Source: Pontiella sp. (lineage in GTDB: Bacteria; Verrucomicrobiota; Kiritimatiellia; Kiritimatiellales; Pontiellaceae). From it: 64,000 nt of DNA. A model generated the notes under the pieces. It was given only the letters and a program-made list of their open reading frames with translations. It ran no database searches and was not told the DNA's origin. The position numbers and the translations under genes are program-made. Below are positions 19,238 to 34,550 of this stretch, in pieces (position 1 is the first letter of the stretch; every line of letters starts with the position of its first letter). The DNA is taken from NCBI GenBank assembly GCA_050290185.1, contig JBNKHE010000004.1, positions 224,001-288,000 of the forward strand, given 5' to 3'.

Positions 19238-19239
19238 CT

Positions 19240-19267
19240 GCCTAACACGGTAATTCGTGCGTTAGGT
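19240..19267. other. Candidate array entry site (attI-like or mini-att palindrome)
   Basis: GCCTAAC-ACGGTAATTCGTGC-GTTAGGT: perfect RYYYAAC and GTTRRRY cores in 28 bp at the GC-to-AT-rich boundary. Confidence 0.45.
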
Positions 19268-19317
19268 GGACTTTCTCTACCTAATTAACTGTTTATTTCA
19301 AAAAAAAGGATAAATCT

Positions 19318-21318
19318 ATGTCCAATAACACAAAGAATATAAAAATTAGCATTAAATACTGTTTAGCAATTACAATTCTAATGGTCTGCAGCTCAGCCAA
19401 CGCGTACCAACAAATCTTTGTAGATAGAGATGGATCAGATACAAATAGTGGCTTGAGTGCTGACTCTCCGCTTCGAACATTCACTCAAGCAGTAACTAAT
19501 GCTAATTATGCGGTGTCAAATGATCACCCTGATGGTGTCGAAATTATTTTAGGACCAGGAAAATTTGATGAGACCACTCATAGTAAAACCAACACTTCGT
19601 GCGTAATCTGGAGACTAGCCAATAATGTTTCTGTCACGGGAGCAGGTTCTGGCAAGGGCACAAATTCAACACAAATTATAAATAACATCGTTCCAGATGG
19701 TTATTATTATTACATACTCCTATTGGAACCCGGAAATAATTCTAGAATTCAAGATCTCTCTATTATCAGCCATCCTCAAGAAATGATCAAAGGCGGAGTT
19801 ATCTGCATAGGATCATTTAGAGGCTGGCTATCTCAATTTCCCACATTATCTGAGGACCGTGTTTGTTTGCTTAAAAACATCTACATGGAATCGAATGATG
19901 CCGGAATTGGTATTGCTGGATATTATCCAGATCCCTACAGCTTAACATTCAATTGTTTTGATATGGATATCAATGTCGGAACTGATGGCGTTATTACCAC
20001 ATACCGTGATAACACCCGTATAAACTTGTTTAATTCGAGTGTGAAGGTGACAAGTTGGACTAACTCCATTCACGACCCACGAACTATTGGCTTAACAGCT
20101 ATTAATTCAAGTGCTGAAATATTTGCTTATAATACTTCTATTTGGGCAATTGATGATGCCCCCGACAATGGAGCAACGTATGCCGACAGTTACTGTGTCG
20201 CGGCCTTTGATGAAGGAGTAGTTCGCACTCATAACTGCAATTTCTATAAAAGCTCAGCAACCAATGCTGTTCAGAATTCTTCTCACCTTCATACTGATCA
20301 CACAATTAGCGCCGAGTATTATACAAATGGTATAATTGAACATTCCCTTAGTCGTTTCTTTATAGGAGATACAAATTTTAATATCGTTGCTTCTAATATT
20401 CATCCTGTAGTGCGAGGCTCTAATGATTATGAAGTAGTTAATCTTTACATTGACAAAGCAGCTGCCGGAAATATGACTGGAGTCGACTGGAATAATGCAT
20501 ATACAGATATTTATGATGCATTATCAAAGGTTGAGACTGGAGATTATACCCATGGAGCAAATTTGATCTTTGCGGGTGGTGATACACATACAGTTACCAA
20601 TGTGCTTAATCTTCCTTACGGAGTGTCCCTGATCGGTACTAACCCAACAAATTTAACAACAATATCGAATACCACTCCTACGTCCTGGACCTATCAGTTT
20701 TTGACACAATCCTCCAACTTCACAGTTCTTGCAAATCTAGATCTTCAAACTACAGGGTTGGGAAATCTTCTTATCGGAGGAGCAAACACCAATCAAGCTG
20801 CTACTGTAATTGATAATTGCCTAATGAGCTCTGACGACACAACAATTGGCTACATTGATGGTTATAAGCATGGCTCTATACTCTCCATTTTTAATTCGGG
20901 CATAATCAGTTCACTGAATGGCATCGCAACTTATGCTGAGCATTTAAATATTGTTTCACAGAACACTTACATTGCCGCAGAGGGTAACCATCCGAGTTAT
21001 CCAGGATATTCGTGCGGAGTTTATGCATCACATGCCCGAATTCACTTTTATGGCACGTCCTCAAGCAATTCAACTATTGCAACCGCAAATACTCAAAAAA
21101 ACACTCTCTATCCTTACAATGGGCCAGTCTTCTCGGATAATGCTCGGATCTATCTTGAGAACTACCACTTAGATACTTCTGAAATGAAGGATATTACTAA
21201 CTATACGATGAGAGCCGTTGGATTAACGGGTCATATACTTTATCGCAATTTAGACTTCTCACCCTCGATTACAACAAATGCATCATCGAGTATAACGGAA
21301 TTGGTTGATTTCGACTAA
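19318..21318 (+). CDS. Cassette gene: secreted protein with probable tandem parallel beta-helix (pectin-lyase-like) modules
   Basis: Signal peptide; FVDRDGSDTNSGLSADSPLRTFTQAV and a second YIDKAAAGNMTGVDWNNAYTDIYDAL cap motif. Confidence 0.6.
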   Translation: MSNNTKNIKISIKYCLAITILMVCSSANAYQQIFVDRDGSDTNSGLSADSPLRTFTQAVTNANYAVSNDHPDGVEIILGPGKFDETTHSKTNTSCVIWRLANNVSVTGAGSGKGTNSTQIINNIVPDGYYYYILLLEPGNNSRIQDLSIISHPQEMIKGGVICIGSFRGWLSQFPTLSEDRVCLLKNIYMESNDAGIGIAGYYPDPYSLTFNCFDMDINVGTDGVITTYRDNTRINLFNSSVKVTSWTNSIHDPRTIGLTAINSSAEIFAYNTSIWAIDDAPDNGATYADSYCVAAFDEGVVRTHNCNFYKSSATNAVQNSSHLHTDHTISAEYYTNGIIEHSLSRFFIGDTNFNIVASNIHPVVRGSNDYEVVNLYIDKAAAGNMTGVDWNNAYTDIYDALSKVETGDYTHGANLIFAGGDTHTVTNVLNLPYGVSLIGTNPTNLTTISNTTPTSWTYQFLTQSSNFTVLANLDLQTTGLGNLLIGGANTNQAATVIDNCLMSSDDTTIGYIDGYKHGSILSIFNSGIISSLNGIATYAEHLNIVSQNTYIAAEGNHPSYPGYSCGVYASHARIHFYGTSSSNSTIATANTQKNTLYPYNGPVFSDNARIYLENYHLDTSEMKDITNYTMRAVGLTGHILYRNLDFSPSITTNASSSITELVDFD

Positions 21319-21360
21319 AAGCCGCAATCACACATCCAAAAAAATAGGAATAAATAGCAA

Positions 21361-21448
21361 GTCGAACCAGCTCATAGACCCTACTTGGACGACGCCCATC
21401 GATTCGGTCAAAGCCTGATTCCCAAGCGGATCATGAGTAACGTTGTGC
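21361..21448 (+). repeat. attC site 1 (88 bp, family B)
   Basis: GTCGAAC-CAG-CTCATAGACC...GGATCATGAG-TAAC-GTTGTGC. Confidence 0.8.
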
Positions 21449-21554
21449 ACAGATAATTTATCGGAGATAAATAACGAGTGAAAAGAGAGGTTCAAACCGC
21501 ACAATCTATAGTGTCAAACGTTTATGCCCGCTCAGGTCACACGTAACGTTGGAA
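21449..21554 (+). repeat. Right part of a long family-A attC fused directly to site 1
   Basis: AGATAATTTATCGGAGATAAAT...CAGGTCACACGTAACGTTGGAA with no left arm. Confidence 0.75.
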
Positions 21555-21570
21555 ATTAAAAGGAGAACAG

Positions 21571-22200
21571 ATGAAAAAATTATTGATAGGACTATCGGCT
21601 ATAGCGGCATCCACAGCTCTTGCATCCACAGTTGTACCCACAGAGCCTAAGGCCCAAGGAAAGAAACTGGCGGTACAGATAGTTAAAGTTGATTCAACCA
21701 AACATTACGACATGACATCTCCCGAATATCCCGACATTCTTCTAGCCCCAGATAAATTGCTAAGTGATGAATCCAATACGATAACACAATATCCAGTGTT
21801 ATATGGAGAACCTGGAACATCAGTTACAAATGATCAAACTGAAGCGATTAGCTATGTTGATGGCTATTCCATTGTTGAGGGAAAGGTAGTTCCTGAAGAA
21901 CACGTCCATAAGATTGGATTATTTATTTCTGCGGATATCTCCGAACTTAAAGGCAACGCAGTCAAACTAAACCTTAACATTCAAAATGAGCAGTTTTTTG
22001 GATATGACGAACAAACTGTGGACGGTAATCAGAAAGTGAAACTAGCCTTCTTCAACAGCCAAAGCCACAATACACCGATAACGTTGGCAATAGGAAACTG
22101 GCTAGTGCTCGGTGGCATATTGAATGAGACAACCAGTTCAAGTGCTATCTCACACACTTCTGTCTATCTGGTTCGCGTCATAGACCCATTGCAGGAATAA
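21571..22200 (+). CDS. Cassette gene: secreted protein resembling a secretin C-terminal core
   Basis: AGGAG RBS, signal peptide, IGLFISA..VKLNL..NTPITLAIGNWLVLGG..YLVRV. Confidence 0.55.
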   Translation: MKKLLIGLSAIAASTALASTVVPTEPKAQGKKLAVQIVKVDSTKHYDMTSPEYPDILLAPDKLLSDESNTITQYPVLYGEPGTSVTNDQTEAISYVDGYSIVEGKVVPEEHVHKIGLFISADISELKGNAVKLNLNIQNEQFFGYDEQTVDGNQKVKLAFFNSQSHNTPITLAIGNWLVLGGILNETTSSSAISHTSVYLVRVIDPLQE

Positions 22201-22205
22201 AATAT

Positions 22206-22354
22206 TTCCAGCCAGCGCGTGGGGACCCTACGCGGCCGAAAGCGAAGCGACAGATAATTTATGAAAGAAATAACGAGAGAAACGAGTGGTTCAAAACGCA
22301 GAATTTTCATGCCTAACGCATAAGTCCCGCGCAGGTCACACGTAACCGTTCGGC
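22206..22354 (+). repeat. attC site 2 (149 bp, long family A; R'' core is AGC)
   Basis: TTCCAGC-CAGCGCGTGGGACC...CAGGTCACACGTAACC-GTTCGGC. Confidence 0.8.
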
Positions 22355-22365
22355 ATAAGGAAACA

Positions 22366-22713
22366 ATGAAAATACTATCCATCGTAACAATAAGTTCTCT
22401 TTTTCTTTTTGGATGCAATCCATCCTCTCAAAACAGCAAATGCATAAAGAAGATAGAGGTTAGCTCTGTCACTATTGTTGATCCAACCATTCCTACGGGC
22501 GTATCTGGGTCAACCAATACAAAAGGAGGACTATCCGAGGAAAGAGAATCTCCATACAAAACCTATTATAAAACTGACTTCAGTCACATTTACATCGAGT
22601 CAGATGAGGAATGGTTAAGAATAACCCGAGTATTCAAAAAATCCGGAGTAAAAGAAACAACGGTCGATTATTATAAGCCAGATTCGGTGATAAAATTTAC
22701 GACTAAAGATTAA
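22366..22713 (+). CDS. Cassette gene: hypothetical lipoprotein
   Basis: AAGGA RBS, lipobox LFGC, bounded by attC sites. Confidence 0.7.
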   Translation: MKILSIVTISSLFLFGCNPSSQNSKCIKKIEVSSVTIVDPTIPTGVSGSTNTKGGLSEERESPYKTYYKTDFSHIYIESDEEWLRITRVFKKSGVKETTVDYYKPDSVIKFTTKD

Positions 22714-22722
22714 ACATAATGA

Positions 22723-22812
22723 GCCGAACCAGCGCGTGGACCTTACGCGGTAAAACGCACAGTTTTCATGCCCAACGCATAAGTCCCGCGCAGGTCACAC
22801 GTAACGTTCTTG
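22723..22812 (+). repeat. attC site 3 (90 bp, short family A)
   Basis: GCCGAAC-CAGCGCGTGGACCTTACGCGG...CGCGCAGGTCACACGTAAC-GTTCTTG. Confidence 0.85.
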
Positions 22813-22829
22813 CGGACGCTGCGCTTGCC

Positions 22830-22924
22830 GCAGAACCAGGCCGCTGCACCAACATTCCGGCTGGCCGTCCGCAGGCTCCGCCTGCTACCGTCCACCCGGA
22901 AAGTTGGTGAGCGCCGCATTAGAA
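22830..22924 (+). repeat. attC site 4 (95 bp, unrelated GC-rich type; R' core is ATT)
   Basis: GCAGAAC-CAGGC-CGCTGCACCAACATTCCGG...CCGGAAAGTTGGTGAGCG-CCGC-ATTAGAA. Confidence 0.75.
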
Positions 22925-22935
22925 ACGGAGATAAT

Positions 22936-23439
22936 ATGACGGAAGAAACAAAACAGAAGTTTATAGATCATCCTGCACCCAGCATCGGCTTGTTTACGCT
23001 TCTCGTTGTAATTATCTGCTTTCTGATTACCGTAATCCCAATGGCAATATCGGACATGCCCAAAGAAGAGCTTGGTTCACCTTCCGCAATCGGAATTTAT
23101 GCTGTCCTTGGCTTTGCGATTGCCATCCTGTGTTTCTACCTGTGGCCACTCTACACCACATATTACATCGTTGATGATAATGGCATAACGATAAAATATG
23201 GTCCATGGACACGTGTATCCCAATGGAATGAATTCAAAATGGTATATTGGCAAAAGGGGATGTTTGTCTCAAAGATCGGGGTGCCTTCTATCACCCCATG
23301 TGTACGCCTCTCAAATGGTCTTGTCCTTCCAAGGAAACACAAGACATGGGGACTATACATTACCCCAAATGATCCGGAAGCATTCATCCGTAAGATCGAG
23401 TTGTTTGCTCCAGAATTAACCAAAGAGATGATAAAATAG
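22936..23439 (+). CDS. Cassette gene: membrane protein with bacterial PH-like domain
   Basis: GGAG RBS before ATG 22936; 2 TM segments then TYYIVDDNGITIKYG..YITPNDPEAFI. Confidence 0.7.
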   Translation: MTEETKQKFIDHPAPSIGLFTLLVVIICFLITVIPMAISDMPKEELGSPSAIGIYAVLGFAIAILCFYLWPLYTTYYIVDDNGITIKYGPWTRVSQWNEFKMVYWQKGMFVSKIGVPSITPCVRLSNGLVLPRKHKTWGLYITPNDPEAFIRKIELFAPELTKEMIK

Positions 23440-23442
23440 GAT

Positions 23443-23590
23443 TTCTAACCAGCGCGTGGACCTTACGGGACCGCATGCGCATCGCAGATAATTTATCGGA
23501 GATAAATAACGAGTGAAACGAGAGGTTCAAACCGCACAGTTTTCATGCCTGACGTTGGTAGTCCCGCGCAGGTCACACATAACGTTGGAT
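23443..23590 (+). repeat. attC site 5 (148 bp, long family A)
   Basis: TTCTAAC-CAGCGCGTGGACC...GGTCACACATAAC-GTTGGAT. Confidence 0.85.
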
Positions 23591-23612
23591 GCAGAAAACA
23601 AGGAGAGTAAAG

Positions 23613-24041
23613 ATGGAAGACAAAGTTTCAGAAGAGCAAGAATTTCATGCAGGGCAAGCATCAACTCCGGCTGTAGAGGTTGCGCCCACACCCGAATCGT
23701 CGCCGATTGCTGGATTTACTAATGAGCAAAGAACGCTTGCGCTCTGCGCATATCTGATCCCGTTAGTAACCAGTTCAAACTTCATTGCTCCCCTCATTAT
23801 CTGGCTGTTAAAAAAAGGTGAAGACTCATACGTCGAAAATCATGCCAAGGAATCGCTCAACTTTCAGATTACGTTTGTGATCTTTGTCTTCGTTGCATGG
23901 CTGAGCATCTTTTTATTAATAGGTGCACTTTTGTTCCCTGCAGTCATAATCACTTATATAGTTTTTGGCATCATTGCCTGCGTCAAAGCGTACAAGGGTG
24001 AAGAATACAGAATCCCACTCTGCATCCGCTTCATCAAATAG
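23613..24041 (+). CDS. Cassette gene: DUF4870 membrane protein
   Basis: APLIIWL..HAKESLNFQIT..KAYKGEEYRIP..IRFIK; AGGAG RBS. Confidence 0.85.
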   Translation: MEDKVSEEQEFHAGQASTPAVEVAPTPESSPIAGFTNEQRTLALCAYLIPLVTSSNFIAPLIIWLLKKGEDSYVENHAKESLNFQITFVIFVFVAWLSIFLLIGALLFPAVIITYIVFGIIACVKAYKGEEYRIPLCIRFIK

Positions 24042-24083
24042 TCAAAAAATACCATAAGAAGACCTCTTCAGATAAATAAGGAC

Positions 24084-24229
24084 ATCCAACCAGCGCGTGG
24101 ACCTTACGCGGCCGCACGCGCAGCGCAGATAATTTATCGGAGATAAATAATGAGTGAAACGAGAGGCTCAAAACGCACAATCTATCGTGCCAAACGTTTA
24201 TTTCGCGCAGGTCACACGTAGCGTTGGCT
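24084..24229 (+). repeat. attC site 6 (146 bp, long family A)
   Basis: ATCCAAC-CAGCGCGTGGACC...GGTCACACGTAGC-GTTGGCT. Confidence 0.85.
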
Positions 24230-24256
24230 TTCATAAAATCCTAAAAGGAGCAAGCA

Positions 24257-24511
24257 ATGGAAATTGAACAAATTATTATCACATTAGTTATAGGTGGTGT
24301 TGCGGGCTGGCTAGCTGGAATTCTCTTCAAGGGAGGGGGATTCGGCCTCGTTGGAAATATAATTGTAGGGTTGCTTGGAGCCGTGTTAGGAGGATGGTTA
24401 TTTAGAGTTCTTAATATTTCAGTTGGTGGTGAATGGGTAGGCCCAATTGTTACATCGACGATAGGAGCAATCGTTCTCCTCTTTGCGATAAGCTTCGTGA
24501 AAAGGAAATAG
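24257..24511 (+). CDS. Cassette gene: GlsB/YeaQ/YmgE (transglycosylase-associated) membrane protein
   Basis: IGGVAGWLA..GFGLVGNIIVGLLGAVLGG..IGAIVLL. Confidence 0.9.
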   Translation: MEIEQIIITLVIGGVAGWLAGILFKGGGFGLVGNIIVGLLGAVLGGWLFRVLNISVGGEWVGPIVTSTIGAIVLLFAISFVKRK

Positions 24512-24599
24512 CCAACCAGCGCCTGAACCTTACGCGGTAAAACGCACAATTTTCATGCCTAACGCATATGTCCCGCGCAGGTTACACGTAACGTTCGGT
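24510..24599 (+). repeat. attC site 7 (90 bp, short family A)
   Basis: AGCCAAC-CAGCGCCTGAACC...GGTTACACGTAAC-GTTCGGT. Confidence 0.8.
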
Positions 24600-24609
24600 A
24601 AAAACATAA

Positions 24610-24936
24610 ATGAAGCAACCCATATCAACCTCTGAAACTCGACCCAAACGGAATCGACTGTTGTTTATGTCCACACTAGTTGCTCTTACTGGATTTTTTG
24701 GAATTCCTCTCACGTTCCAAATAATCGCCAAGGCAGACTTCTTCAGTATTCTTTTCTTTCTGCCATGCATTCCTCTGATGTTCAACCTAATCGGACTAGG
24801 CTTAGTTGCTTGCGATAAACTCAAGACAAAGGGACTCATTATTTACCTAATTCCATGCTTCATTCTATCATTTTTCGTAATAGCAGGCACAGCCGGCATG
24901 CTCCACTTCTTTATTGTGTATGAATCAATGCCCTAG
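24610..24936 (+). CDS. Cassette gene: hypothetical 3-TM membrane protein
   Basis: ORF fills the space between attC sites; hydrophobic segments. Confidence 0.65.
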   Translation: MKQPISTSETRPKRNRLLFMSTLVALTGFFGIPLTFQIIAKADFFSILFFLPCIPLMFNLIGLGLVACDKLKTKGLIIYLIPCFILSFFVIAGTAGMLHFFIVYESMP

Positions 24937-24969
24937 AAAGATGAACAAAACATCTCCAATAATAATGAA

Positions 24970-25064
24970 ACCGAACCAGGGCATGGACCCGACAGAGTCC
25001 GGCAGTTAATTTAACGGCAAAGAACCACTCCCCCCATTTTTGCGGGTCACGCCTAACATTAGAC
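24970..25064 (+). repeat. attC site 8 (95 bp; R' core is ATT)
   Basis: ACCGAAC-CAGGGCATGGACCCG...CGGGTCACGCCTAAC-ATTAGAC. Confidence 0.75.
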
Positions 25065-25072
25065 AAAAATAG

Positions 25073-25630
25073 ATGATTAATCTCCGTCCATTCCAATCCT
25101 CAGACATTTCCTGTTTTAATGAGTTCTCAGGGGATGATTGGACGGTTTTTAATTGGTTGGATGAGATCGGGCGGCCGATTATAAAGGAAAAGTTTTTGAA
25201 AGATCTAGAGAACCCTGAGTTGCATTCTTACATCGCGGTTGAATCGAACCAGCAAGAAGTCGTCGGGCATCTTCAAATAAAAGAAATGGAACCAGGAGTT
25301 GGTCGCTTTCACAGGTTTGTAGTAAGCAAAAAAGAGAAAAGAAGAAAAGGAATTGGAAGAGATATATTGTCCCAAGCGCTTAAAATCGCGTTCGAAGAAT
25401 TTGAGTTCGACCTGATGACTCTGGGAGTTTTTGATATTAATACTCCAGCAATCAGTTTCTGCGAATCTATGGGCTTTCAACCACACTCCTCAAAGTTGAT
25501 TGATTATCGCTTTAACGATAATCTCACCCACCCTTTGAATATGACGCTCCCGAAAGAAAATTGGGAGTCTAACAAGGCATGTGAGAGGAATGCCGAGATC
25601 GCTCCCGCTCCTCGCCATCTCTCCACTTGA
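25073..25630 (+). CDS. Cassette gene: GNAT N-acetyltransferase
   Basis: LRPF, RRKGIG, LGVFDINTPAI..SMGF. Confidence 0.85.
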   Translation: MINLRPFQSSDISCFNEFSGDDWTVFNWLDEIGRPIIKEKFLKDLENPELHSYIAVESNQQEVVGHLQIKEMEPGVGRFHRFVVSKKEKRRKGIGRDILSQALKIAFEEFEFDLMTLGVFDINTPAISFCESMGFQPHSSKLIDYRFNDNLTHPLNMTLPKENWESNKACERNAEIAPAPRHLST

Positions 25631-25638
25631 CGTTGGGC
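25567..25638 (+). repeat. attC site 9 (72 bp, unrelated type), overlapped by the GNAT 3' end
   Basis: GTCTAAC-AAGGCAT-GTGAGAG...CTCTCCAC-TTGAC-GTTGGGC. Confidence 0.7.
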
Positions 25639-25649
25639 AAAGAAAAAAT

Positions 25650-26255
25650 ATGTACATACCTGATAGATTTAAGATGAATGACAGGGAGGTAGTTAATACC
25701 TTCATTCGTAAGCATAATTTCGGACTGCTTGTCACAACCGACGGAAAAACCATCGATGAGACCTTAACACCCTTCCTAATTTCAGAAACCGAAGAGTGTC
25801 TGTACGGCCATATTGCACGGGCAAACCCGCAATGGACGAAATGGGATGACTCAACAATAGCCAAAGTGATGTTCACCGGCCCTCATTCTTATATTTCCCC
25901 AAAGTTTTATGAGTCTGAATTGAACGTACCGACGTGGAATTATACGGCGGTTTCAATCAGCGGAGAAATTAAGACCCAAAATAACAGGCCTGAAATTATT
26001 GAATTTCTAGATGCCTTGGTTACCCAACATGAAGCACCGGAAGCTCCATGGAATCTAGATAAAGATGATGAACGCTATATGAAGCTACTCGACGGGATCG
26101 TTGTCTTCAGACTCCAAATTAAGGATGTCGAAGCATCGTATAAATTAAACCAAAATAAGAAAGTAGAGGATCAGTTGAGTGTTATAGCGGCTCTGGAAAG
26201 TTCAGATAATCCAATTGATAACGAAGTTGCTAAAATGATGAAGCAGAACATATAA
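25650..26255 (+). CDS. Cassette gene: FMN-binding negative transcriptional regulator (PaiB family)
   Basis: MYIP..F, GHIARANPQW, GPHSYISP, VPTWNY, KLNQN. Confidence 0.9.
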   Translation: MYIPDRFKMNDREVVNTFIRKHNFGLLVTTDGKTIDETLTPFLISETEECLYGHIARANPQWTKWDDSTIAKVMFTGPHSYISPKFYESELNVPTWNYTAVSISGEIKTQNNRPEIIEFLDALVTQHEAPEAPWNLDKDDERYMKLLDGIVVFRLQIKDVEASYKLNQNKKVEDQLSVIAALESSDNPIDNEVAKMMKQNI

Positions 26256-26257
26256 TA

Positions 26258-26406
26258 GCTCAACCAGCGCGTGGAGCTTACGCAGCCGCACGCGTAGCGC
26301 AGATAATTTATCGGAGATAAATAACGAGTGAAACGAGCGGTTCAAAACGCACAATTTTCATGCCCACAACACAGAAGCCCCGCGCAGGTCACACGTAACG
26401 TTTCAG
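26258..26406 (+). repeat. attC site 10 (149 bp, long family A)
   Basis: GCTCAAC-CAGCGCGTGGAGC...GGTCACACGTAAC-GTTTCAG. Confidence 0.85.
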
Positions 26407-26416
26407 GAGAGAAAAT

Positions 26417-26758
26417 ATGAACAAAATATGCATCTATGCTTCTTTGTTAATTCTACTGTTGAGCGGATGCACAACACCCGAAATACAAATAGAGAAAGCT
26501 TCAGCTTTATCCCAAGAAAAAATCGAAATTATGAGAGAGCAAGTTCAGGAAGATTTACAGCAATATCAAATGCAGCAGATCAGAGCTGGTCTGCCACCCC
26601 TCCCCATTCCTCTGACCGAAGAAAACATTGCTCGCATTCAATCTGAACTAAAAGCACATACAGAAAAACCAGAGGTTTATGTTGAGGCAAAAACAACCCC
26701 TGAACTACAAAAAATGATACACGACTCCATCGTTCGTGGAATGCAGCAAGCAGATTAA
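26417..26758 (+). CDS. Cassette gene: hypothetical lipoprotein
   Basis: AGGAG RBS, lipobox LSGC. Confidence 0.7.
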   Translation: MNKICIYASLLILLLSGCTTPEIQIEKASALSQEKIEIMREQVQEDLQQYQMQQIRAGLPPLPIPLTEENIARIQSELKAHTEKPEVYVEAKTTPELQKMIHDSIVRGMQQAD

Positions 26759-26764: not shown

Positions 26765-26855
26765 TGCCAACCAGCGCGTGGACCTTACGAGGTAAAACGC
26801 ACAATCTGTCGTGCCAAACGTTTATGTCCCGCGCAGGTCACACGTAACGTTCTGA
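26765..26855 (+). repeat. attC site 11 (91 bp, short family A)
   Basis: TGCCAAC-CAGCGCGTGGACC...GGTCACACGTAAC-GTTCTGA. Confidence 0.85.
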
Positions 26856-27054: not shown

Positions 27055-27756
27055 GTGAAGAAATGTAAGTTCGTGGCGTTGTTGGCCTTCATGGCATTTG
27101 TGGGAATATCATCGGCTGATTTAGTAAGTATCACTGTCAGGGGGAAAGCTGACACAACTAAAATGGGATATTTATCTGGTCATAGTTACAGCTTTACTTG
27201 GGTTCTCAATGATACATATACCGGCAGTCCTTGGGATGAATATTCTGCTTCTAAAAATCAATGGTATGTTCAAGAATCCATTTACCCGGCACTGTGGGAC
27301 TCAGTTCACGGAAGCGGGTTATCTGGAACGTACGTCCGTCCCTCACCATGGAATGAGGACTACTTGTCTATAAATTCTCAACTTGATACGGATCAAGTAA
27401 ACTTAACCGCCGAAGCACCCGTTACCGACATCGGTCTTACCGTGAACGGCGTCAAAGTGGCATGGGTTGCGGCTATAAATCTTCGGTTTAGTGAATTTTC
27501 ATTTCCGGAGACATTCTCTAACCCTGCAAATTATATGACAGGATATTTAGGGACATATACACCGAGTGATGGATTTATGCGCGTCGGAGACATAAATGGT
27601 AACAACATCTACTTTACTGCGACCAGTGTAGAAGTAGTTCCGGAGCCGTCGAGCGCGTTGCTGCTGGTGGTCGGTTCTGGCGGCATCCTGCTCTATCGCC
27701 GCACGAGGGAACGTCATCAAACCGAGATTCCCTCCCGCCGACATTTCTTCCAGTAG
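27055..27756 (+). CDS. Cassette gene: PEP-CTERM sorting-domain protein
   Basis: AGGAGG RBS with GTG start, signal peptide, C-terminal VPEPSSALLLVVGSGGILLYRR. Confidence 0.88.
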   Translation: MKKCKFVALLAFMAFVGISSADLVSITVRGKADTTKMGYLSGHSYSFTWVLNDTYTGSPWDEYSASKNQWYVQESIYPALWDSVHGSGLSGTYVRPSPWNEDYLSINSQLDTDQVNLTAEAPVTDIGLTVNGVKVAWVAAINLRFSEFSFPETFSNPANYMTGYLGTYTPSDGFMRVGDINGNNIYFTATSVEVVPEPSSALLLVVGSGGILLYRRTRERHQTEIPSRRHFFQ

Positions 27757-28040
27757 TTCATGGAGGGCTGATCTTGTATTGTCCTTAGGTCGTAATAGAG
27801 CCGTGGGGGTTATTATACATTGTCATGACGAGCAGGGATAACGTTTCAGAACCAGCCAAACCATAAAGATGTCCTCTATCTCCCCCACTCCCTTCAATTC
27901 ACACCTAGTAAAATCTACTAAATAATCACCAATGGTGTATTTGATGACTCACAAAGAAATTGACTAAACTAATTGTATTTTATGGGGAGTAATGACTCAA
28001 ACTTGCTCGACCAAAGACGTTAGTCTGAAAAAACAAATGA

Positions 28041-28188
28041 ATCGAACCCGTGCGTGGACCTTACACGGCCTCACGCGCAGCGCAGATAATTGATCGGAGA
28101 TAAATAACGAGTGAAACGAGAGGCTCAAAACGCACAATCTATCGTACCAAACGCTTATTTCCCGCGCAGGTTAAACGTAACGTCCGAC
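28041..28188 (+). repeat. attC site 12 (148 bp, long family A; R' core is GTC)
   Basis: ATCGAAC-CCGTGCGTGGACC...GGTTAAACGTAAC-GTCCGAC. Confidence 0.8.
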
Positions 28189-28255
28189 GAAAGAAAAATT
28201 TAAGAAACCTGCCTAATGCAGAGATTTGAAAACATTAAAATTATAAGGAGATAGA

Positions 28256-28471
28256 ATGAAAAAAATCGGCGGTACAATATTCTTTTTTGGAGCGGGATCC
28301 ATAGTTCTATATTTTGTGCATATGGAATTTATCATCTTATCTTGGATTGACATGTGGGGCCCTTTAGTCGGTTGGATAATTCGAGGAGTGTTACTTGTGG
28401 TTGGTGGTGTTCTTTGGCTCATTGGAAGGCCTGATACGGAACAAAAACGACAGTCTGAATTTGCAGAATAA
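28256..28471 (+). CDS. Cassette gene: small 2-TM membrane protein
   Basis: AAGGAG RBS; WIDMWG..GWIIR motif. Confidence 0.75.
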   Translation: MKKIGGTIFFFGAGSIVLYFVHMEFIILSWIDMWGPLVGWIIRGVLLVVGGVLWLIGRPDTEQKRQSEFAE

Positions 28472-28476
28472 TTTAT

Positions 28477-28624
28477 ATCGAACCAGCGCGTGGACCTTGC
28501 GCGGTCGCACGCGCTGCGCAGATAATTTATCTGCGATAAATAACGAATGAAATGAGAGGTTCAAACCGTACAATCTATCGTGCCAAATGCTTATTTCCCA
28601 CGCGGGTCACGCCAAACGTTAGGC
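28477..28624 (+). repeat. attC site 13 (148 bp, long family A)
   Basis: ATCGAAC-CAGCGCGTGGACC...GGGTCACGCCAAAC-GTTAGGC. Confidence 0.85.
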
Positions 28625-28645
28625 ACCTATAAAAAAGGAACAAAA

Positions 28646-28917
28646 ATGAAAAACAGATCAAACGAATATCAGTCGCCCAAACTAGTAAAATCATTGTGAT
28701 TTTATACGTAGTATTCAGCCTGCTGTATTCTCTAATCGGTATTCCAATGATTATCTTTGGTGGTTCTGAAATGAAGATAATGGGCTTCATGTATCTCTTC
28801 ATGCCAATTCTCGCAGGCATCTTTGGGTTTATCGGTTGCTGGGTTTACAACCTGGTTGCAGGGAAATTCGGTGGTGTTGAATTTGAAGTAAAAGACATTG
28901 GAGAAACAATGGCCTAA
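28646..28917 (+). pseudogene. Cassette gene: small membrane protein (DUF3566-like), frameshifted just after ATG
   Basis: ATG-AAAAA-CAG; one extra A gives MKKQIKRISVAQTSKII..YNLVAGKFGGVEFEV. Confidence 0.6.
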
Positions 28918-28999
28918 CCAGGTCATTGACCCTACTTGGACAACGCCCGTTTTTGAAGGCAAAGTCTGAGTTCCAAGAAGGTCACACGTAACGTTCGAC
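28912..28999 (+). repeat. attC site 14 (88 bp, family B body with family A right arm)
   Basis: GCCTAAC-CAGGTCATTGACCCTACTTGGAC...GGTCACACGTAAC-GTTCGAC. Confidence 0.8.
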
Positions 29000-29014
29000 T
29001 GAGAGGAACATTAT

Positions 29015-29758
29015 ATGATCAAACCAAAAACATTCGTATCTTCAGTAATCCTAACCATGGTTGCGTTAATCTCTCAACATGCTGACGGACAGGTATTGTT
29101 TGGCAGCACCAACGATGGTTCCGGCTCTGGAACTCATTCAGCAGGGCATTTAACCGGACATATAATCTACGTTTCTGAAGAAGCCATCCTCACCCATATC
29201 GGCATCATTTTTGATCAGCCTGGAGGAACGTGCAGAGCAGGAATATACGCAGACTCGGAAGACCAGCCCGGGAAATTACTTGGCGAGATTCCTGCGCTTC
29301 GCATACGTGATCGCGGAGCTACGGAACTTCCCATTGCCGAACCACTGGTTTTATCCCCTGGTAACTACTGGGTTATGATTGCATGTAACCGAGATACGAA
29401 GATTTCAAAGTCACAATCAGCTTCAACCAAGGTTTGTTATCGTCCCTTTGTCTTTGACGAAACCATGCCGGATCCCATAGGTATAACAACTAATTATATG
29501 ACGACCTCAACCGAAGACGTTTATCTCAAGTGCAACTATATTAAAGAAGACGTCTGCCCTTTCTCCTCGGCACCAGCAGGAGAGATTTACTTCCCAACAA
29601 TCAAAGGGAAAGTATATCAGGTTCAGTTTACAGAAGATATAGAATCACCCAACTGGCAACCTTTTGCACCTCCCTTTACGGCAACCGGAGCAAACACCAA
29701 TATATTTTTCTCAACACGCAATACACCAAAACGGCGGTACCGGGTTATTGTAAAATAG
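29015..29758 (+). CDS. Cassette gene: secreted protein with Verrucomicrobia-type C-terminal domain
   Basis: Signal peptide; C-terminal FPTIKGKVYQVQFTEDI..W..RRYRVIVK. Confidence 0.7.
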   Translation: MIKPKTFVSSVILTMVALISQHADGQVLFGSTNDGSGSGTHSAGHLTGHIIYVSEEAILTHIGIIFDQPGGTCRAGIYADSEDQPGKLLGEIPALRIRDRGATELPIAEPLVLSPGNYWVMIACNRDTKISKSQSASTKVCYRPFVFDETMPDPIGITTNYMTTSTEDVYLKCNYIKEDVCPFSSAPAGEIYFPTIKGKVYQVQFTEDIESPNWQPFAPPFTATGANTNIFFSTRNTPKRRYRVIVK

Positions 29759-29763
29759 AATTA

Positions 29764-29899
29764 GTCGAACCAGCGTGTGGACCTTACGCGAGCGCAGATA
29801 ATTTATCAGAGAAAAAACGAGTGAAGCGAGAGGCTCAAAACGCACTCTCCGTCGTGCCTGACGTTGATGGTCCCGCGCAGGTCACACCAGACGTTCGCT
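29764..29899 (+). repeat. attC site 15 (136 bp, long family A with small deletions)
   Basis: GTCGAAC-CAGCGTGTGGACC...GGTCACACCAGAC-GTTCGCT. Confidence 0.85.
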
Positions 29900-29911
29900 A
29901 ACAGGAATATT

Positions 29912-30574
29912 ATGATACAAAAATTAATCAAGAACACTCTGATCCCAACGCTGACCTTAATCGGATTAGCAGGATGCCAAGTTTACCATCATGCCGAAAT
30001 TTCTGGGAACGTAATTCACGACCCACAGCTAGGTTGGAATGGTTATACTGTGAATATTCCAGACGGTTACTACATTATACCAAAAAAGGTCGCAGCCGCA
30101 TCAGCTGGCCCCCTTGAGCATCCGGTTAACTGGTTGGTGAAGGAACGCGATATTTACACGCTCTCTCTAGCACTCAATTTTGATGAGCGCTTTCTATTTA
30201 AGAGCGATGATGAGCAATCATACATTTTATTTGCTTCTGAGCGGCTCGATTTTATCAAGAGCCTCAATCAATTCTCAACCGTAATAAAAAAGAGAGTAAT
30301 GTATAATATAAGGGACTACCAAAAGGTCCGGTTAAATGACAGCGATGCATTGTTCGAGCAAATGACCATCAACGGCATGATGGCCTGCCGCGTAAGCGGA
30401 CGGCTACGGCCCTATTTCAAAAAGAATTATCCCACGATTTTTTATGAAGGTTATTTTTTCCTAGGCCACTTAAACGAAACTTTTTGGGTTGAGGGGATTT
30501 CATCGGCAAAAGGTCGAACTGAGCTGCAACGCGGAGTAAAAGAGATGGCGGAAAGCCTGATGAATCCATTATAA
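29912..30574 (+). CDS. Cassette gene: hypothetical lipoprotein
   Basis: AGGA RBS before ATG 29912, lipobox LAGC. Confidence 0.7.
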   Translation: MIQKLIKNTLIPTLTLIGLAGCQVYHHAEISGNVIHDPQLGWNGYTVNIPDGYYIIPKKVAAASAGPLEHPVNWLVKERDIYTLSLALNFDERFLFKSDDEQSYILFASERLDFIKSLNQFSTVIKKRVMYNIRDYQKVRLNDSDALFEQMTINGMMACRVSGRLRPYFKKNYPTIFYEGYFFLGHLNETFWVEGISSAKGRTELQRGVKEMAESLMNPL

Positions 30575-30583
30575 TTCAAGATA

Positions 30584-30732
30584 AGCGAATCAGCGCGTGG
30601 ACCTTACGCGGGGCATACGCGCAGCGCAGATAATTTATCGGAGATAAATAACGAGTGAAACGAGAGGTTAAAAACGCATGATTTTCATGCCAGACGTTTA
30701 TGAGCAGCGTCGGGTCACACGTAGCGTTGGGA
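30584..30732 (+). repeat. attC site 16 (149 bp, long family A; R'' core is AAT)
   Basis: AGCGAAT-CAGCGCGTGGACC...GGGTCACACGTAGC-GTTGGGA. Confidence 0.8.
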
Positions 30733-30742
30733 GAATGTAAAC

Positions 30743-31537
30743 ATGAAAGTATATCATATTGATGCATTCACCGACGACCTGTTTAAGGGGAATCCTGCTG
30801 GAGTTATCATTCTGAACAATGACGACATCAGCGATGCTCTCAAACAGAGCATCGCAAGAGAATTGAAGCACTCAGAGACTGCGTTTGTCCTCATAAAAGA
30901 AGGACATGTAAATTTAAGGTGGTTTACACCGGAGCGGGAAGTTGACCTTTGTGGTCATGCAACCATTGCGTCAGCTCATATCTTATGGGAGTCTGGAGTA
31001 TTTGATTCTCAGGAGAAAGTGGACTTCCAAACTAGATCAGGCACTCTTCGAGCTATTCACAATAGAGGGAAAATTGAATTGGATTTCCCTCAGCTGTTTG
31101 TAGATGAATGTGAGCAAAACATAATCCTAAACGAAGCTTTTAGGATAGAGCCAGTTTATACGGGAAAGAACTCCAAAAGATACCTGCTCCAAATAGAGAG
31201 TCCTGATGAGCTTAGAAAATTACAGCCTGATTTTGAGTTGCTGAAGAAAGCAGATCTTGGAGCATTCATGATAACCTGCAGATCAGATCGACCGGGTTAT
31301 GATTTTCTTTCGCGATTCTTTGCCCCATGTGTTGGAATTCATGAAGACCCGGTTACCGGATCTGCACATTGTTACCTTGCTCCATACTGGGGTAGGATTC
31401 TCAATAAAAAAACCATGGTTGGTTTTCAGGAATCAAGCCGTACAGGAATCGTTGAATGTGAGCTCCAGGAAAAACATAGATTAAAAATATCAGGACAAGC
31501 TAAAACTGTATTTGAAGCTGAAATGAATATCACCTAA
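30743..31537 (+). CDS. Cassette gene: PhzF family isomerase
   Basis: DAFT..FKGNPAGV, SETAF, LRWFTP.EVDLCGHAT, EDPVTGSAH. Confidence 0.92.
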   Translation: MKVYHIDAFTDDLFKGNPAGVIILNNDDISDALKQSIARELKHSETAFVLIKEGHVNLRWFTPEREVDLCGHATIASAHILWESGVFDSQEKVDFQTRSGTLRAIHNRGKIELDFPQLFVDECEQNIILNEAFRIEPVYTGKNSKRYLLQIESPDELRKLQPDFELLKKADLGAFMITCRSDRPGYDFLSRFFAPCVGIHEDPVTGSAHCYLAPYWGRILNKKTMVGFQESSRTGIVECELQEKHRLKISGQAKTVFEAEMNIT

Positions 31538-31595
31538 CCAGAGCATTCACCCTATCGTTTTCTCCGCGCGCTCAGGGTGATGCTTAACGTTGGCC
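31532..31595 (+). repeat. attC site 17 (64 bp, classical short type)
   Basis: ACCTAAC-CAG-AGCATTCACCCT...AGGGTGATGCT-TAAC-GTTGGCC (one extra T on the left arm). Confidence 0.85.
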
Positions 31596-31606
31596 AGAAA
31601 TAACAA

Positions 31607-32038
31607 ATGAACATTACGAAACTAACAGAAGCTGATCTCCCAGCCCTTGCATCTCTCTACACGCAATTCTGGGGCGAAGAGTCATCAGTGGATAAAATGC
31701 AGTCCACATTTGCTAAACTCCAAGATAATCCTGACTACACCTTCTTAGCAGCACGTCTTGATGATCAAATTGTTGGCTCTGTAATGGGTGTAGTTTGTCA
31801 TGAGCTATACGGGGACTGTAAACCATTCATGGTCGTTGAAGATATGATAATTGATAAGACTGTACGACGGCAAGGTATCGGTTCCCTTTTAATGAATTCA
31901 ATTGAGGAAAAAGCGAAAGAGAGAGAGTGCTGTCATCTTATATTAGTGACCGATACAGACCGATATGATGCACGTCAGTTCTATGAGTCATTGGGATTTG
32001 ATCCAGAGAAGAACAAAGGATTCAAAAAGAAACTATAA
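31607..32038 (+). CDS. Cassette gene: GNAT N-acetyltransferase
   Basis: VEDMII..RRQGIGS..ARQFYESLGF. Confidence 0.9.
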   Translation: MNITKLTEADLPALASLYTQFWGEESSVDKMQSTFAKLQDNPDYTFLAARLDDQIVGSVMGVVCHELYGDCKPFMVVEDMIIDKTVRRQGIGSLLMNSIEEKAKERECCHLILVTDTDRYDARQFYESLGFDPEKNKGFKKKL

Positions 32039-32041
32039 CAG

Positions 32042-32274
32042 GGCCAACCAGTGCGTGGACCTTACGCGGCCGAAAGCGACACGTAGTGAGGCTGGAGTTC
32101 ACAGCAATGAAGCGCGGAATGGCAACCGAAGATAATTTCCGCATGCGCGAAGCCATAATTTCCAGAAGGGAAATAGTGAACAGAGAGAACGGTTCAAGAA
32201 CGAAGAGGTTCAAAACGCACAATTTTCTCATGCCCAACGCATATATCCCGTTCAGGTCACACGTAACGTTCGAC
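32042..32274 (+). repeat. attC site 18 (233 bp, extra-long family A)
   Basis: GGCCAAC-CAGTGCGTGGACCTTACGCGG...CAGGTCACACGTAAC-GTTCGAC. Confidence 0.8.
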
Positions 32275-32354
32275 AAAGATATCTAAACTAAACTATCTGG
32301 CTTTAACGTTATTAACGTTTATATGCGTCCAGCCATGCAACAGAAAGGGAACCT

Positions 32355-32939
32355 ATGAAACACACGATCGTACTAATCGTTGCAATTCTGCCTGCACTTA
32401 TTTGGGGTTGCACAACAAAGAGCATTCAAGCTCCTGCTATTGCGCTATCCCAAGATCAGGCGGAAAACAATGCAGATTTAAGAGCAATGTTACCTAGGGG
32501 TACATCGATTGAAGATGCTAAGCAGATTATATTGGCTCAAGGATATGACTGGGAGTTGAAAACAACACGTTCAAAGCTAGACGGGACTCCAACACCATCC
32601 AACCCTTATGCCATATGCACCAAGCCTAACACTGAACCTGTAACCATCGCATTTTCTTCTGACAATACAGTGGCTATAGTCAACATCCTCGAAACACCAA
32701 AAACTACTAAGATCGAAAACATTGTCTACAGTGCAATTGCTGACTATCCGAAGGAAAACGGAAGGAATCCGAACACCACCGAAGAGATCATAGAGTATAT
32801 TTTGAAAAACAATCCGAATGTCGATAAGGCTGACTTAGGATCTATTTCCTTAATAACAAGACCCAACGGAAAGAAACAGCTACGGTTTAATCCTCGAGAC
32901 TACGCGATAAGTTATGTTGACTTGCCTAAATTACAATAA
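32355..32939 (+). CDS. Cassette gene: hypothetical lipoprotein
   Basis: AAGGG RBS, lipobox-like IWGC. Confidence 0.7.
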   Translation: MKHTIVLIVAILPALIWGCTTKSIQAPAIALSQDQAENNADLRAMLPRGTSIEDAKQIILAQGYDWELKTTRSKLDGTPTPSNPYAICTKPNTEPVTIAFSSDNTVAIVNILETPKTTKIENIVYSAIADYPKENGRNPNTTEEIIEYILKNNPNVDKADLGSISLITRPNGKKQLRFNPRDYAISYVDLPKLQ

Positions 32940-32942
32940 CAG

Positions 32943-33031
32943 GCCTAACCAGCGGGCTGAGCTTACCCGGCACAACGCCCGTCGATTAAGTGAAGTTGAT
33001 TTCCCGGGTCAGTTCACCCGTAACGTTCGAT
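32943..33031 (+). repeat. attC site 19 (89 bp, family B-related)
   Basis: GCCTAAC-CAG-CGGGCTGAGCTTACCCGG...CCGGGTCAGTTCACCCG-TAAC-GTTCGAT. Confidence 0.8.
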
Positions 33032-33053
33032 TAATAAAGGAAAGAGTGAGATT

Positions 33054-33503
33054 ATGATACCAACGCAATGGACCACCCAAAGCGGGCAGAAGGATCTTCC
33101 AGAACTTTTGAAGAAACTGGAACAAGAAGGTGGCTCAATTGTTGAGTATAGATCCGTGATCTCTGCAGTAATCTTCTATCGGATATCATCAAAGCTGTAT
33201 TGGGTTTCCAGAGATAAAAGCCAATCATTCCAGGGACTCATTGTTTCCATACCAACCATGCTCCTTGGGTGGTGGTCTATACAGGGATTCTTTTGGACCT
33301 TTTCAGTTATAGTCAGCAACGTTTTGGGCGGTATTGATGTAACAGAGTTGTTCACGACTCCACCAGAGAATGGAGAGCTAAGTGATCGCATAATTAGAAG
33401 GATTGAACAGCAACGGAAAAATCAGCAATGGTCGTTTGTTGGTGGATTACTTCTCTTACTGGCAATCATCATTATTTTTTTCGTGATGCCCTGTTTAAAA
33501 TAA
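33054..33503 (+). CDS. Cassette gene: hypothetical membrane protein
   Basis: LLGWWS..GFFW..N..GGIDVT motif, C-terminal TM. Confidence 0.75.
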   Translation: MIPTQWTTQSGQKDLPELLKKLEQEGGSIVEYRSVISAVIFYRISSKLYWVSRDKSQSFQGLIVSIPTMLLGWWSIQGFFWTFSVIVSNVLGGIDVTELFTTPPENGELSDRIIRRIEQQRKNQQWSFVGGLLLLLAIIIIFFVMPCLK

Positions 33504-33506
33504 TAA

Positions 33507-33652
33507 ATCGAACCAGCGCGTGGACCGTGAATCGCACCAAGGCGCTATTTCCCCTTAAGGGAAGTTATCTATCGCTGCGCTTTCGGCGCGGAACAACGCA
33601 TTTTTGATTCGGTCAACGTTTAGCTCAACGCGGGTCACACGTAACGTTGGCA
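33507..33652 (+). repeat. attC site 20 (146 bp, family A arms with a different centre)
   Basis: ATCGAAC-CAGCGCGTGGACCG...CGGGTCACACGTAAC-GTTGGCA. Confidence 0.8.
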
Positions 33653-33666
33653 GTAAAAGGTAAAAC

Positions 33667-34455
33667 ATGAAGAAAAACATAATTGCAACGGTGATAATTT
33701 GTTTGCTGATGGAAATACACGTCACAGCGGCAAACGAGAATTTCCATACATTTACCGATACGAAAGGACGAAGCATTCGAGCTAAACTGCTTAAATTCGA
33801 GGCCTCAACCGGGCGGGTCTTCATCTTGACTGATAGCGGTAACAGGACATGGATGAATCCTTCTGCCTTATCGTATGAATCCGCAGCCTATGTCCGCAGA
33901 TGGATACAGGCCAACCAGTTTCTTTCTGAGAATTATCTACGCGTATCAATCAATAAACGGTTCATTGGTGATGAAATTTGCTATGACTTGACGATGGAAA
34001 ACCGCACGAAAAACCCGCTACCTTCTTTGAAGGTAGACTATGTTATTTATATCAACCGGAAGGGGTATAACGGGACGCCTGATGAGATGCGCTGTATTGG
34101 AGGGACAATCACGATAGACAATTTTGCCGCCCGCAAAAAGGTCGTAAAGACAACAAAAGAGGTATCCTTGGAGAAGCAGATGCGGGCCGCTTATACGACT
34201 GGCCTTAACGGCACTCTGACAACAGATAACATGAAGATTCGCGAGGATAAGCCCTTAGGGATATGGTTTAAGATCTATGGTCCCCCTCTGGATGGTGTTC
34301 GTTCGGTGCGTGATGCTTCCTTTCCAAATGCGTTAAAGGAGCATGTCGTGTGGGCAAAACATGTGTTTATTTCGCAAGATACGGATTTGAGTCCGGATGT
34401 GGATTCGATGTCAGGTCTGGATTCTCAGCTGGATAATCTGAATTCGATGATGTAG
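33667..34455 (+). CDS. Last cassette gene: secreted protein with N-terminal SHD1-like domain
   Basis: Signal peptide; FHTFTDTKGRSIRAKL..LS..SAAYVRRW; followed by a degenerate attC left arm (CAGCGCGAGGGGCCTTCCGCGG, about 34476). Confidence 0.7.
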   Translation: MKKNIIATVIICLLMEIHVTAANENFHTFTDTKGRSIRAKLLKFEASTGRVFILTDSGNRTWMNPSALSYESAAYVRRWIQANQFLSENYLRVSINKRFIGDEICYDLTMENRTKNPLPSLKVDYVIYINRKGYNGTPDEMRCIGGTITIDNFAARKKVVKTTKEVSLEKQMRAAYTTGLNGTLTTDNMKIREDKPLGIWFKIYGPPLDGVRSVRDASFPNALKEHVVWAKHVFISQDTDLSPDVDSMSGLDSQLDNLNSMM

Positions 34456-34550
34456 CAATGAACTAATTGTTCACCCAGCGCGAGGGGCCTTCCGCGGACG
34501 GAGCATCGCGGAGGAGGTTGCGCAAGGAACGAGAGTCCCCAAAATGCATT

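Follow-up and report, generated by a model that had tools for sequence, protein, structure and literature searches.

The 64,000-nucleotide window analysed here (contig C4, positions 224001-288000, of a Pontiella sp. assembly of 3.58 Mb in 163 contigs, 95.5% complete) carries an array of integron cassettes at 19.3-34.5 kb, between a gene for an AEC-family transporter and a fetA/fetB-type pair. On the sequence evidence this array is probably a satellite integron, that is, a stand-alone capture platform made of a promoter and an attI site without an integrase, which would have been filled in trans by an integron integrase (IntI) of the clade here called A. What can be read from the DNA is a cognate attI, cassette joins at G/TT, contents that differ at an orthologous integrase-less site, and an intact enzyme elsewhere in the genome. 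An initial annotation of the window had recognised the cassettes and overlooked the promoter-like site and attI that head them. Below, G-numbers denote genomes (G000 being the genome studied), C-numbers contigs of G000 and L-numbers extracted loci; the features are listed in Table 1.

The 18-bp attI of the window agrees with the intI-linked attI at 17 of 18 positions, its 5-bp spacer included, and its geometry (7-bp L box, 5-bp spacer, crossover between G and TT) is that of attI1. Within three mismatches the motif occurs three times in 3.58 Mb, each copy lying directly before a first cassette: in the window, at the head of an array after the HU gene, and beside the intact intI on C5. The chance expectation, even at three mismatches, is a mean of 0.15 matches per window. 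By homology and junction analysis an attI appears to head the array, as in a complete integron. The inverted accessory boxes upstream of it may be additional IntI binding sites. Promoter-like hits are weak evidence alone (2 in 300 bp, vs 0.8 in shuffles); the hexamers and their 17-bp spacing are kept in the related genome G062 although the spacer has diverged. The tree built from 29 IntI proteins of the order has five full-length intI genes in the C5 clade (clade A), and all five carry the attI motif, or a near version of it, in the corresponding position; another IntI clade carries a different motif, which heads an array after tRNA-Gly. The four bases following the attI GTT complement the attC core of the first cassette in 16 of 34 copies from congeners by script and in two more by eye, integrase-less copies among them; 16 copies are without such a match, four of these having no called first open reading frame (ORF), and the window copy belongs to this unmatched group. 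The accessory boxes were also considered as SOS boxes, and a Verrucomicrobia LexA motif was not found near either intI, the lexA-like gene or attI.

The sites separating the cassettes have the anatomy of attC sites, with cores RYYYAAC (R'') and GTTRRRY (R'), paired L boxes, an unpaired central spacer and an extrahelical base on the L'' arm. AAC is intact in 18 and GTT in 17 of the 20 complete sites, of which 18 have AACCAG.../...ACGTT arms (64-233 bp) and two are of other attC types; one right half site and one decayed terminal site complete the census. The 20 attC-like palindromes first reported find their match in number, although the palindrome at 19240 belongs to the attI region and is not an attC. 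The extra left-arm base noted at that time is real: it is a bottom-strand C in 16 of 18 window sites and in all 119 distinct sites elsewhere in the genome. Folding and scatter had been singled out as possible grounds against an integron; in 16 of 18 window sites the bottom strand gives the more stable constrained fold, G-T wobbles pairing only there, and none of the 145 paired sites of the genome stands isolated, away from another site or a contig end. The 3' core (four variable bases) complements the 5' core of its own cassette perfectly in 12 of 20 cassettes, with 61 of 80 bases complementary against a permutation mean of 34.5 and a maximum of 51 (100,000 permutations). As a control, complementarity of the 3' core to the right end of its own site was found in 0 of 20. 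Because the core rule holds in 12 of 20 cassettes and in none of the controls, we conclude from these sequences that an integron integrase assembled the array.

A position-weight scan of the genome located 145 paired attC sites and 32 half sites, spread over 47 contigs, a count that may be slightly high since four cassettes are identical between C15 and C20. The paired sites of 88-91 bp, with their neighbours, number 111 and form a large, homogeneous, host-specific family. The dominant homogeneous family described initially is thus a property of the genome and less so of the window, whose sites are the least homogeneous among the arrays: their median nearest-neighbour identity is 0.85 vs 0.98 for unplaced sites, and 10 of 18 exceed 100 bp vs 10 of 121 elsewhere (Fisher p 8e-6). 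Divergent among them is the 64-bp site at 31532, whose best identity to any other site is 0.53.

No IntI-like sequence was detected on the entire 308-kb contig (tblastn, E<0.01), so that the window array, with no intI adjoining it, falls short of a complete integron, and the absence of an integrase reported from the window extends to the whole contig. Two full-length IntI genes exceed the TIGR02249 cut-off elsewhere in the genome. Of the two explanations offered initially, action in trans is supported and loss of the integrase is not. The C5 gene encodes an intact protein of 460 aa (406 bits vs a cut-off of 265, with PF00589 also over its cut-off), whose best solved match is V. cholerae IntI4 (2A3V, E 2e-85). 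The alignment takes in the IntI-specific insertion, and the protein has the catalytic motifs; its gene is divergent from an array and lies beside the cognate attI. The clade-A proteins (L011:1057-2439 and relatives) are longer than the IntI4-like part by ~140 aa at the N-terminus, a stretch that weakly resembles the SAM-like domain. The second IntI (452 aa, C3:254447-255802, L012) is divergent; hisF and hisI flank its gene, no attC sites lie near it, and G062 carries an orthologue (L121). The locus is possibly a domesticated In0.

Synteny with relatives groups the attC pieces of G000 into four arrays, three of which have an attI-like head and no intact intI. These are the window array; an array of at least 28 sites running from HU to Mrp (start of C3 and start of C1); the array from intI to rmuC (start of C5 and end of C7); and the array after tRNA-Gly, which retains only a 20-codon intI remnant and probably ends at C14 (this class-B assignment is by elimination, synteny having given no support). 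The HU-Mrp array is absent in G061 and G011, has perfect cores in 9 of 10 cases, and its attC sites are 98% identical to others. A second attI class, with long direct repeats, also heads integrase-less arrays (C5:285978-286460, which is L207, in G000; L050 in G061; L224 in G062); in G061 it lies directly after the same AEC gene as the window platform, and in G000 the first cassette after it has an attC of the clade-A family and a core that matches.

Comparison of the AEC-fetA interval across relatives, one of the checks suggested with the initial annotation, confirmed that it varies. Among 30 congeners having both genes on one locus, 28 have them separated by 2-104 bp. The other two are G009, which holds an unrelated 8-kb gene block (multiheme cytochrome c genes; L107, G009:C85), and G062, where the interval of 565 bp repeats the promoter, boxes and attI of the window without any intI, followed by a single cassette whose core matches perfectly and whose attC, of the same family, measures 90 bp. 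That cassette is inserted exactly at attI, and the insert ends 9 nt before fetA, as in the window. It gave no tblastn hit in the G000 genome, and none of the window ORFs was found in G062 (85% complete). Sister species thus display empty, one-cassette and twenty-cassette states of one site, with flanking genes 78-83% identical in nucleotides between G062 and G000. The intact intI locus of C5 is empty in four of the five relatives examined, so it likely arrived after the AEC platform. The initial annotation had also suggested a sedentary chromosomal system, which the empty site in 28 of 30 congeners contradicts: the window locus is no ancient sedentary locus. Unlike a superintegron, none of these loci is conserved across the genus (the window locus is empty in 28 of 30 and the intI locus in 4 of 5; the HU locus is empty in G061 and G011).

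The alternative closest to conventional views of such arrays is that AEC and fetA were formerly separated by a complete integron with a large array, that its intI was deleted, that later differences between species are losses only and that the attI is non-functional. We consider this unlikely, though it has real points in its favour, the first of which emerges from 65 distinct attI copies pooled from congeners, 14 genome-collection hits and 24 metagenome hits. In 25 copies the first box lies 50-56 bp upstream. Of these long-spaced copies 20 have an intI or stump, and the 25 together show graded decay: the gene is full in 7, cut off by the contig end in 2 and a stump in 11, and 5 give no hit. 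Whole intI+attI units also move, as duplicates at unrelated sites of 1,470 bp at 99.9% in G032 (L115/L116) and 1,353 bp at 99.1% in G068 (L198/L199) testify; their junctions carry no transposase, and empty integron platforms move as units. The window sites, moreover, look old and fold less readily, the median computed probability of the recombinogenic fold being 8.8e-5 for long sites vs 3.9e-3 for short ones (20 long vs 119 short, p 2e-4, a value that the kinship of the sites overstates), and the first core is mismatched. Against a relic stand the interval of only ~30 bp from the AEC stop to the promoter, which shows no trace of intI in G000 or G062; the conservation of promoter hexamers and boxes across species while the spacers drift; and the G062 cassette missing from G000, which would require complementary losses. 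There are also 15 short-spaced copies, with the first box 36-45 bp upstream, among which none has an intI or stump upstream (the remaining 25 of the 65 have no recognisable first box). The window and HU heads are both of this short type, other genomes show this spacing again at loci unrelated to these, and short modules have been duplicated without intI within G009 and within G049. The short module probably descends from an intI+attI unit, because such units move and frequently have their intI disrupted later; that the module keeps its spacing at unrelated loci suggests that it then spread independently.

Two other ideas were considered and rejected, the second of them for G007. Against short-spaced attI belonging to another IntI clade, no IntI hit was found at 12 loci, on C4, or within 9 kb at C3 (two of the upstream flanks being only ~500 bp). 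That satellites arise when IntI cuts its own gene at a GTT-like site was examined in G007 (L118, L166-L169), which has one intact intI and four near-identical attI copies, each with a small array; the intI of the four copies is cut at codons ~76-113 by IS110-type elements, and the four stumps end at IS110-type transposase ends instead of GTT-like sites.

It is very improbable that the array grew from a secondary site, a cassette having entered a chromosomal attG and more being added by attC x attC recombination, with the upstream motif a product of chance or convergence. Insertion by attC x attG has been demonstrated (bioRxiv 10.1101/2022.09.11.507474), GTTCAC stands at both insert ends in G062, and a dispersed 90-bp palindromic repeat with TAGGCAGAA/TTCTGCCTA ends, which are the accessory-box motif of attI, occurs in the AEC-fetA gap of three congeners (G068, G056 and G018; L052, L058, L067), at the very position taken by the platform in the window. 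The near-complete match to the intI-linked attI, spacer included, is not expected by chance, and the empty sites of congeners hold nothing like attI. As the origin of the array head a secondary site is largely refuted; as the landing route of a circle of promoter, attI and cassette it is possible. Hardly credible at all is a fragment of the intI-linked array, broken off by a rearrangement or insertion sequence: this is a known route to integrase-less arrays according to the survey cited below (PMC4889954), and the arrays have an attC family in common, but the window array is headed by a separate attI belonging to another spacing subtype, its flanks are an intact ancestral gene pair with no transposase at either end of the array, and the locus is shared with G062, whose site for the intI locus of G000 is empty.

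Several observations weigh against a platform filled, and still fillable, in trans. None of the four core bases of window cassette 1 is complementary to the attI core, which may weaken the R box; this mismatch and the diverged window attC sites speak against present activity, and three attC of the young type lie in mid-array rather than at its head. The branching of G000, G062 and G023 reaches no more than 73% bootstrap (two-gene tree, 21 genomes), G023 being equally close and empty, and G062 is only 85% complete. Clade-A IntI is missing in two attI-bearing congeners, G049 (one contig, with only another IntI clade) and G041 (none); the attI module can evidently outlive its enzyme. Loss of intI is documented, by the IS110-cut stumps in G007 and by a clean deletion for the second attI class in G062, and since integrons here demonstrably lose intI, complete-integron ancestry is likely at some depth. 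Neither an excised circle nor a variant array head was seen. Four DNA contig sets of one study, and no RNA set among the matches listed, contain the stretch. In those sets, possibly from the source sample, single contigs span both array junctions without differences; listed contig joints with short sides inside attC repeats were treated as artefacts, and the listed matches include no loose end at attI, which speaks neither for nor against activity.

The window sites also carry marks of age. Nine of the 18 main-type sites measure 146-233 bp, beyond the published range of 57-141 bp (PMC5371416), being lengthened by a 58-bp insert. Eight long sites hold such an insert of 47-59 bp at one position (Table 1), and the insert also occurs outside attC and in other species (further copies at C1:508051, C5:275582 and C4:107931 of G000 and at loci L050, L115 and L172-L174); a search for an autonomous partner of the insert, with an overly tight pattern, gave 3 matches in 2 of 89 genomes. 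The element ends in GGTTCA, is found also within attI repeats and other palindromic repeats of several species, and looks like a miniature mobile insert preferring hairpins; the genome encodes Y1 transposase and IS110-type genes. It was gained or lost in place, because the attC of one cassette is short here and long in G061. The mismatched core of the first cassette and the many lengthened attC point to an ageing platform, and we infer that the window satellite is old and now mostly static, and that the HU-Mrp satellite, the second of the short type, is younger.

On the favoured account, a platform of ~90 bp would have landed between AEC and fetA in the ancestor of G000 and G062, and clade-A IntI encoded elsewhere would have filled it with cassettes. 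The enzyme would diffuse from its own locus, excise cassettes by attC x attC recombination and insert them by attC x attI at any genomic copy of the clade-A attI; each platform promoter would express its first cassettes, one enzyme thus serving several array heads. The integrase encoded elsewhere in this genome can probably still load the window array. In a superintegron the attC bottom strand lies on the leading-strand template; here the cassette strand lies on the G-poor strand at 8 of 8 flanks of the four arrays, and all four appear to be in the excision-prone orientation (polarity being taken from marker genes; the G-rich strand carries rplB, secY, rpoC, gyrB, one EF-G and 27 of 39 tRNAs, and not a second EF-G and atpD). 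Tentatively, the Pontiellaceae might carry a non-autonomous platform (promoter and attI, ~90-170 bp, of fixed architecture) that spreads without intI to intergenic sites not occupied before and founds arrays there. A single integrase would then be at the centre of an integron distributed over several promoters, its arrays lasting in the excision-prone orientation and an attC-targeting miniature insert damping excision of older cassettes.

By definition the array is a cluster of attC sites without an integron integrase (CALIN; Cury et al. 2016, PMC4889954), as the initial annotation had it; from its sequence it would work like a complete integron with an enzyme from another locus. It resembles the CALINs of that survey in having at least two attC and no intI nearby, in an IntI encoded elsewhere in the genome (as for half of the CALINs there) and in possible mobilisation in trans, and with more than 10 sites it would rank in the top 6.6% by size. 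It differs in having an attI and a promoter-like site, which would make it a recipient and not a donor only. According to that survey, attI is unknown for most integrons and was searched only for classes 1-3, and a stand-alone attI module is not among the four CALIN origins given. With the Vibrio superintegron (Loot et al. 2017, PMC5371416) the genome shares more than 100 cassettes, one dominant host-specific attC family, and mostly unknown, AT-rich genes. Xanthomonas CALINs (bioRxiv 10.1101/2025.06.18.660453) likewise occupy fixed loci that different species have in common, away from intI, with frequent intI inactivation; no attI is reported in the sections consulted for those at conserved non-ilvD loci, and intI is fixed at ilvD there and not fixed here. 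The attG sites and SALINs of Loot et al. (bioRxiv 10.1101/2022.09.11.507474) are similar in their intergenic chromosomal cassettes, G/TT junctions and loading in trans, whereas here cassettes would enter a true homologue of attI that has accessory boxes; since attI x genome-site recombination was insignificant in those experiments, that study does not explain the spread of the module. Delta-attI-type cassettes (PMC12901181) show that attI-derived sites away from intI remain recombinogenic; those sites lie inside class 1/2 arrays as cassette ends, unlike the whole promoter-attI heads at separate chromosomal loci found here.

CALINs, action in trans and intI loss are already in print. In the main texts of the open literature searched, we found no report of integrons in Pontiella or of stand-alone attI modules or a conserved subtype of them. 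Complete integrons are fewer than CALINs, which tend to be regarded as leftovers or passive reservoirs, in part since searches for attI are limited to a few classes. For the present IntI clade, itself uncharacterised, the attI sequence can be stated, and it shows that an array without an integrase can be a capture platform; how CALINs originate, and whether they still gain genes, becomes testable with a single enzyme and three short sites. Some attC sites as long as those found here (146-248 bp) would be missed under the default size limits of detection tools.

The gene content agrees with the initial description of about 20 AT-rich, co-oriented genes: the array holds 20 ORFs of 71-666 aa, every one on the + strand, and 19.3-34.5 kb has 42.8% GC vs 54.9% for the remaining window. 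No toxin-antitoxin or defence family was found among them (Pfam, PADLOC), as had been noted for toxin-antitoxin cassettes. Among 94 ORFs of the other arrays, some of whose cassettes are unassembled or unscanned, no known toxin-antitoxin pair was found at E<=1e-5, and one gene has a PIN domain. An Rfam search gave 0 matches.

Table 1. Features of the cassette array and its flanks (window coordinates)
Feature	Position	Strand	Details
Left flank: AEC-family transporter gene, outside element	18245-19177	+	Pfam Mem_trans PF03547; abuts fetA in most congeners
Pc-like sigma-70 promoter (predicted), TTTACA-N17-TATTTT	19209-19237	+	9/12 consensus
Inverted accessory-box pair, TTCTGCCTAAC ... GTTAGGTGGA	19236-19270	+	upstream of attI; short-spaced subtype
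attI simple site	19276-19293	+	L box 19279-19285; 5-bp spacer; crossover G/TT at 19291/19292
Cassette 1, 666 aa, probably secreted beta-helix/DUF1565-like	19318-21318	+	5' core not complementary to own attC; no Pfam match; high feature score, a lead only
attC, 88 bp	21361-21448	+	
Right half of long attC	21449-21554	+	remnant of deleted cassette
Cassette ORF, 209 aa, weak secretin-like match under cut-off	21571-22200	+	attC 22206-22353 (148 bp)
Cassette ORF, 115 aa, lipoprotein-like	22366-22713	+	attC 22723-22812 (90 bp), 98.8% identical to first attC of HU array
ORF-less mini cassette	22806-22924	+	attC of another type (22830-22924); also at C1, C7, C14, C150
Cassette ORF, bPH-like membrane protein	22936-23439	+	attC 23443-23590 (148 bp)
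Cassette ORF, DUF4870	23613-24041	+	attC 24084-24229 (146 bp); 77% identical copy in G061
Cassette ORF, transglycosylase-associated protein	24257-24511	+	attC 24510-24599 (90 bp); same cassette with long attC in G061
Cassette ORF, 108-aa membrane protein	24610-24936	+	attC 24970-25064 (95 bp)
Cassette, GNAT acetyltransferase	25073-25638	+	attC of another type 25567-25638
Cassette ORF, FMN_bind_2 family	25650-26255	+	attC 26258-26406 (149 bp)
Cassette ORF, 113 aa, lipoprotein-like	26417-26758	+	attC 26765-26855 (91 bp)
PEP-CTERM-like ORF (below Pfam cut-off), then ORF-less stretch repeated in other arrays	27055-27756	+	attC 28041-28188 (148 bp)
Cassette ORF, 71 aa	28256-28471	+	attC 28477-28624 (148 bp)
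Cassette ORF, 73 aa from GTG	28696-28917	+	apparent frameshift near 5' end; attC 28912-28999 (88 bp)
Cassette ORF, 247 aa	29015-29758	+	attC 29764-29899 (136 bp)
Cassette ORF, 220 aa, lipoprotein-like	29912-30574	+	attC 30584-30732 (149 bp)
Cassette ORF, PhzF family	30743-31537	+	attC 31532-31595 (64 bp, divergent)
Cassette ORF, GNAT	31607-32038	+	attC 32042-32274 (233 bp, nested inserts)
Cassette ORF, 194 aa	32355-32939	+	attC 32943-33031 (89 bp)
Cassette ORF, 149 aa	33054-33503	+	attC 33507-33652 (146 bp)
Last cassette ORF, 262 aa	33667-34455	+	
Decayed terminal attC	about 34469-34667	+	crossover 9 nt before fetA start, as in G062
Right flank: fetA/fetB-type ABC ATPase and UPF0014 permease, outside element	34678-36097	+	Pfam
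Inserts of 47-59 bp within long attC	22233-22292, 23471-23528, 24111-24169, 26285-26343, 28068-28126, 28504-28562, 29791-29836, 30613-30669		

The ORF-less mini cassette, which has a hairpin and a foreign attC, recurs at C1:6507, C7:248087, the end of C14 and C150, often near distal array ends. The pattern of the window attI was recovered from 14 genome records, 13 of them titled Pontiella, Pontiellaceae, Kiritimatiellales or Verrucomicrobia, in agreement with the PVC (Planctomycetes-Verrucomicrobia-Chlamydiae) lineage first proposed and, more closely, with a Pontiella-like member of the Kiritimatiellales. It also occurs on a 2.4-kb contig (L232) of a record titled Altererythrobacter, probably a binning error. 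Outside the array, the minus strand of the window encodes long repeat proteins at 50400-54300 and 41340-41860 (calcium-binding-like Asp-rich repeats; 102-bp tandem units), which are ordinary for the lineage.

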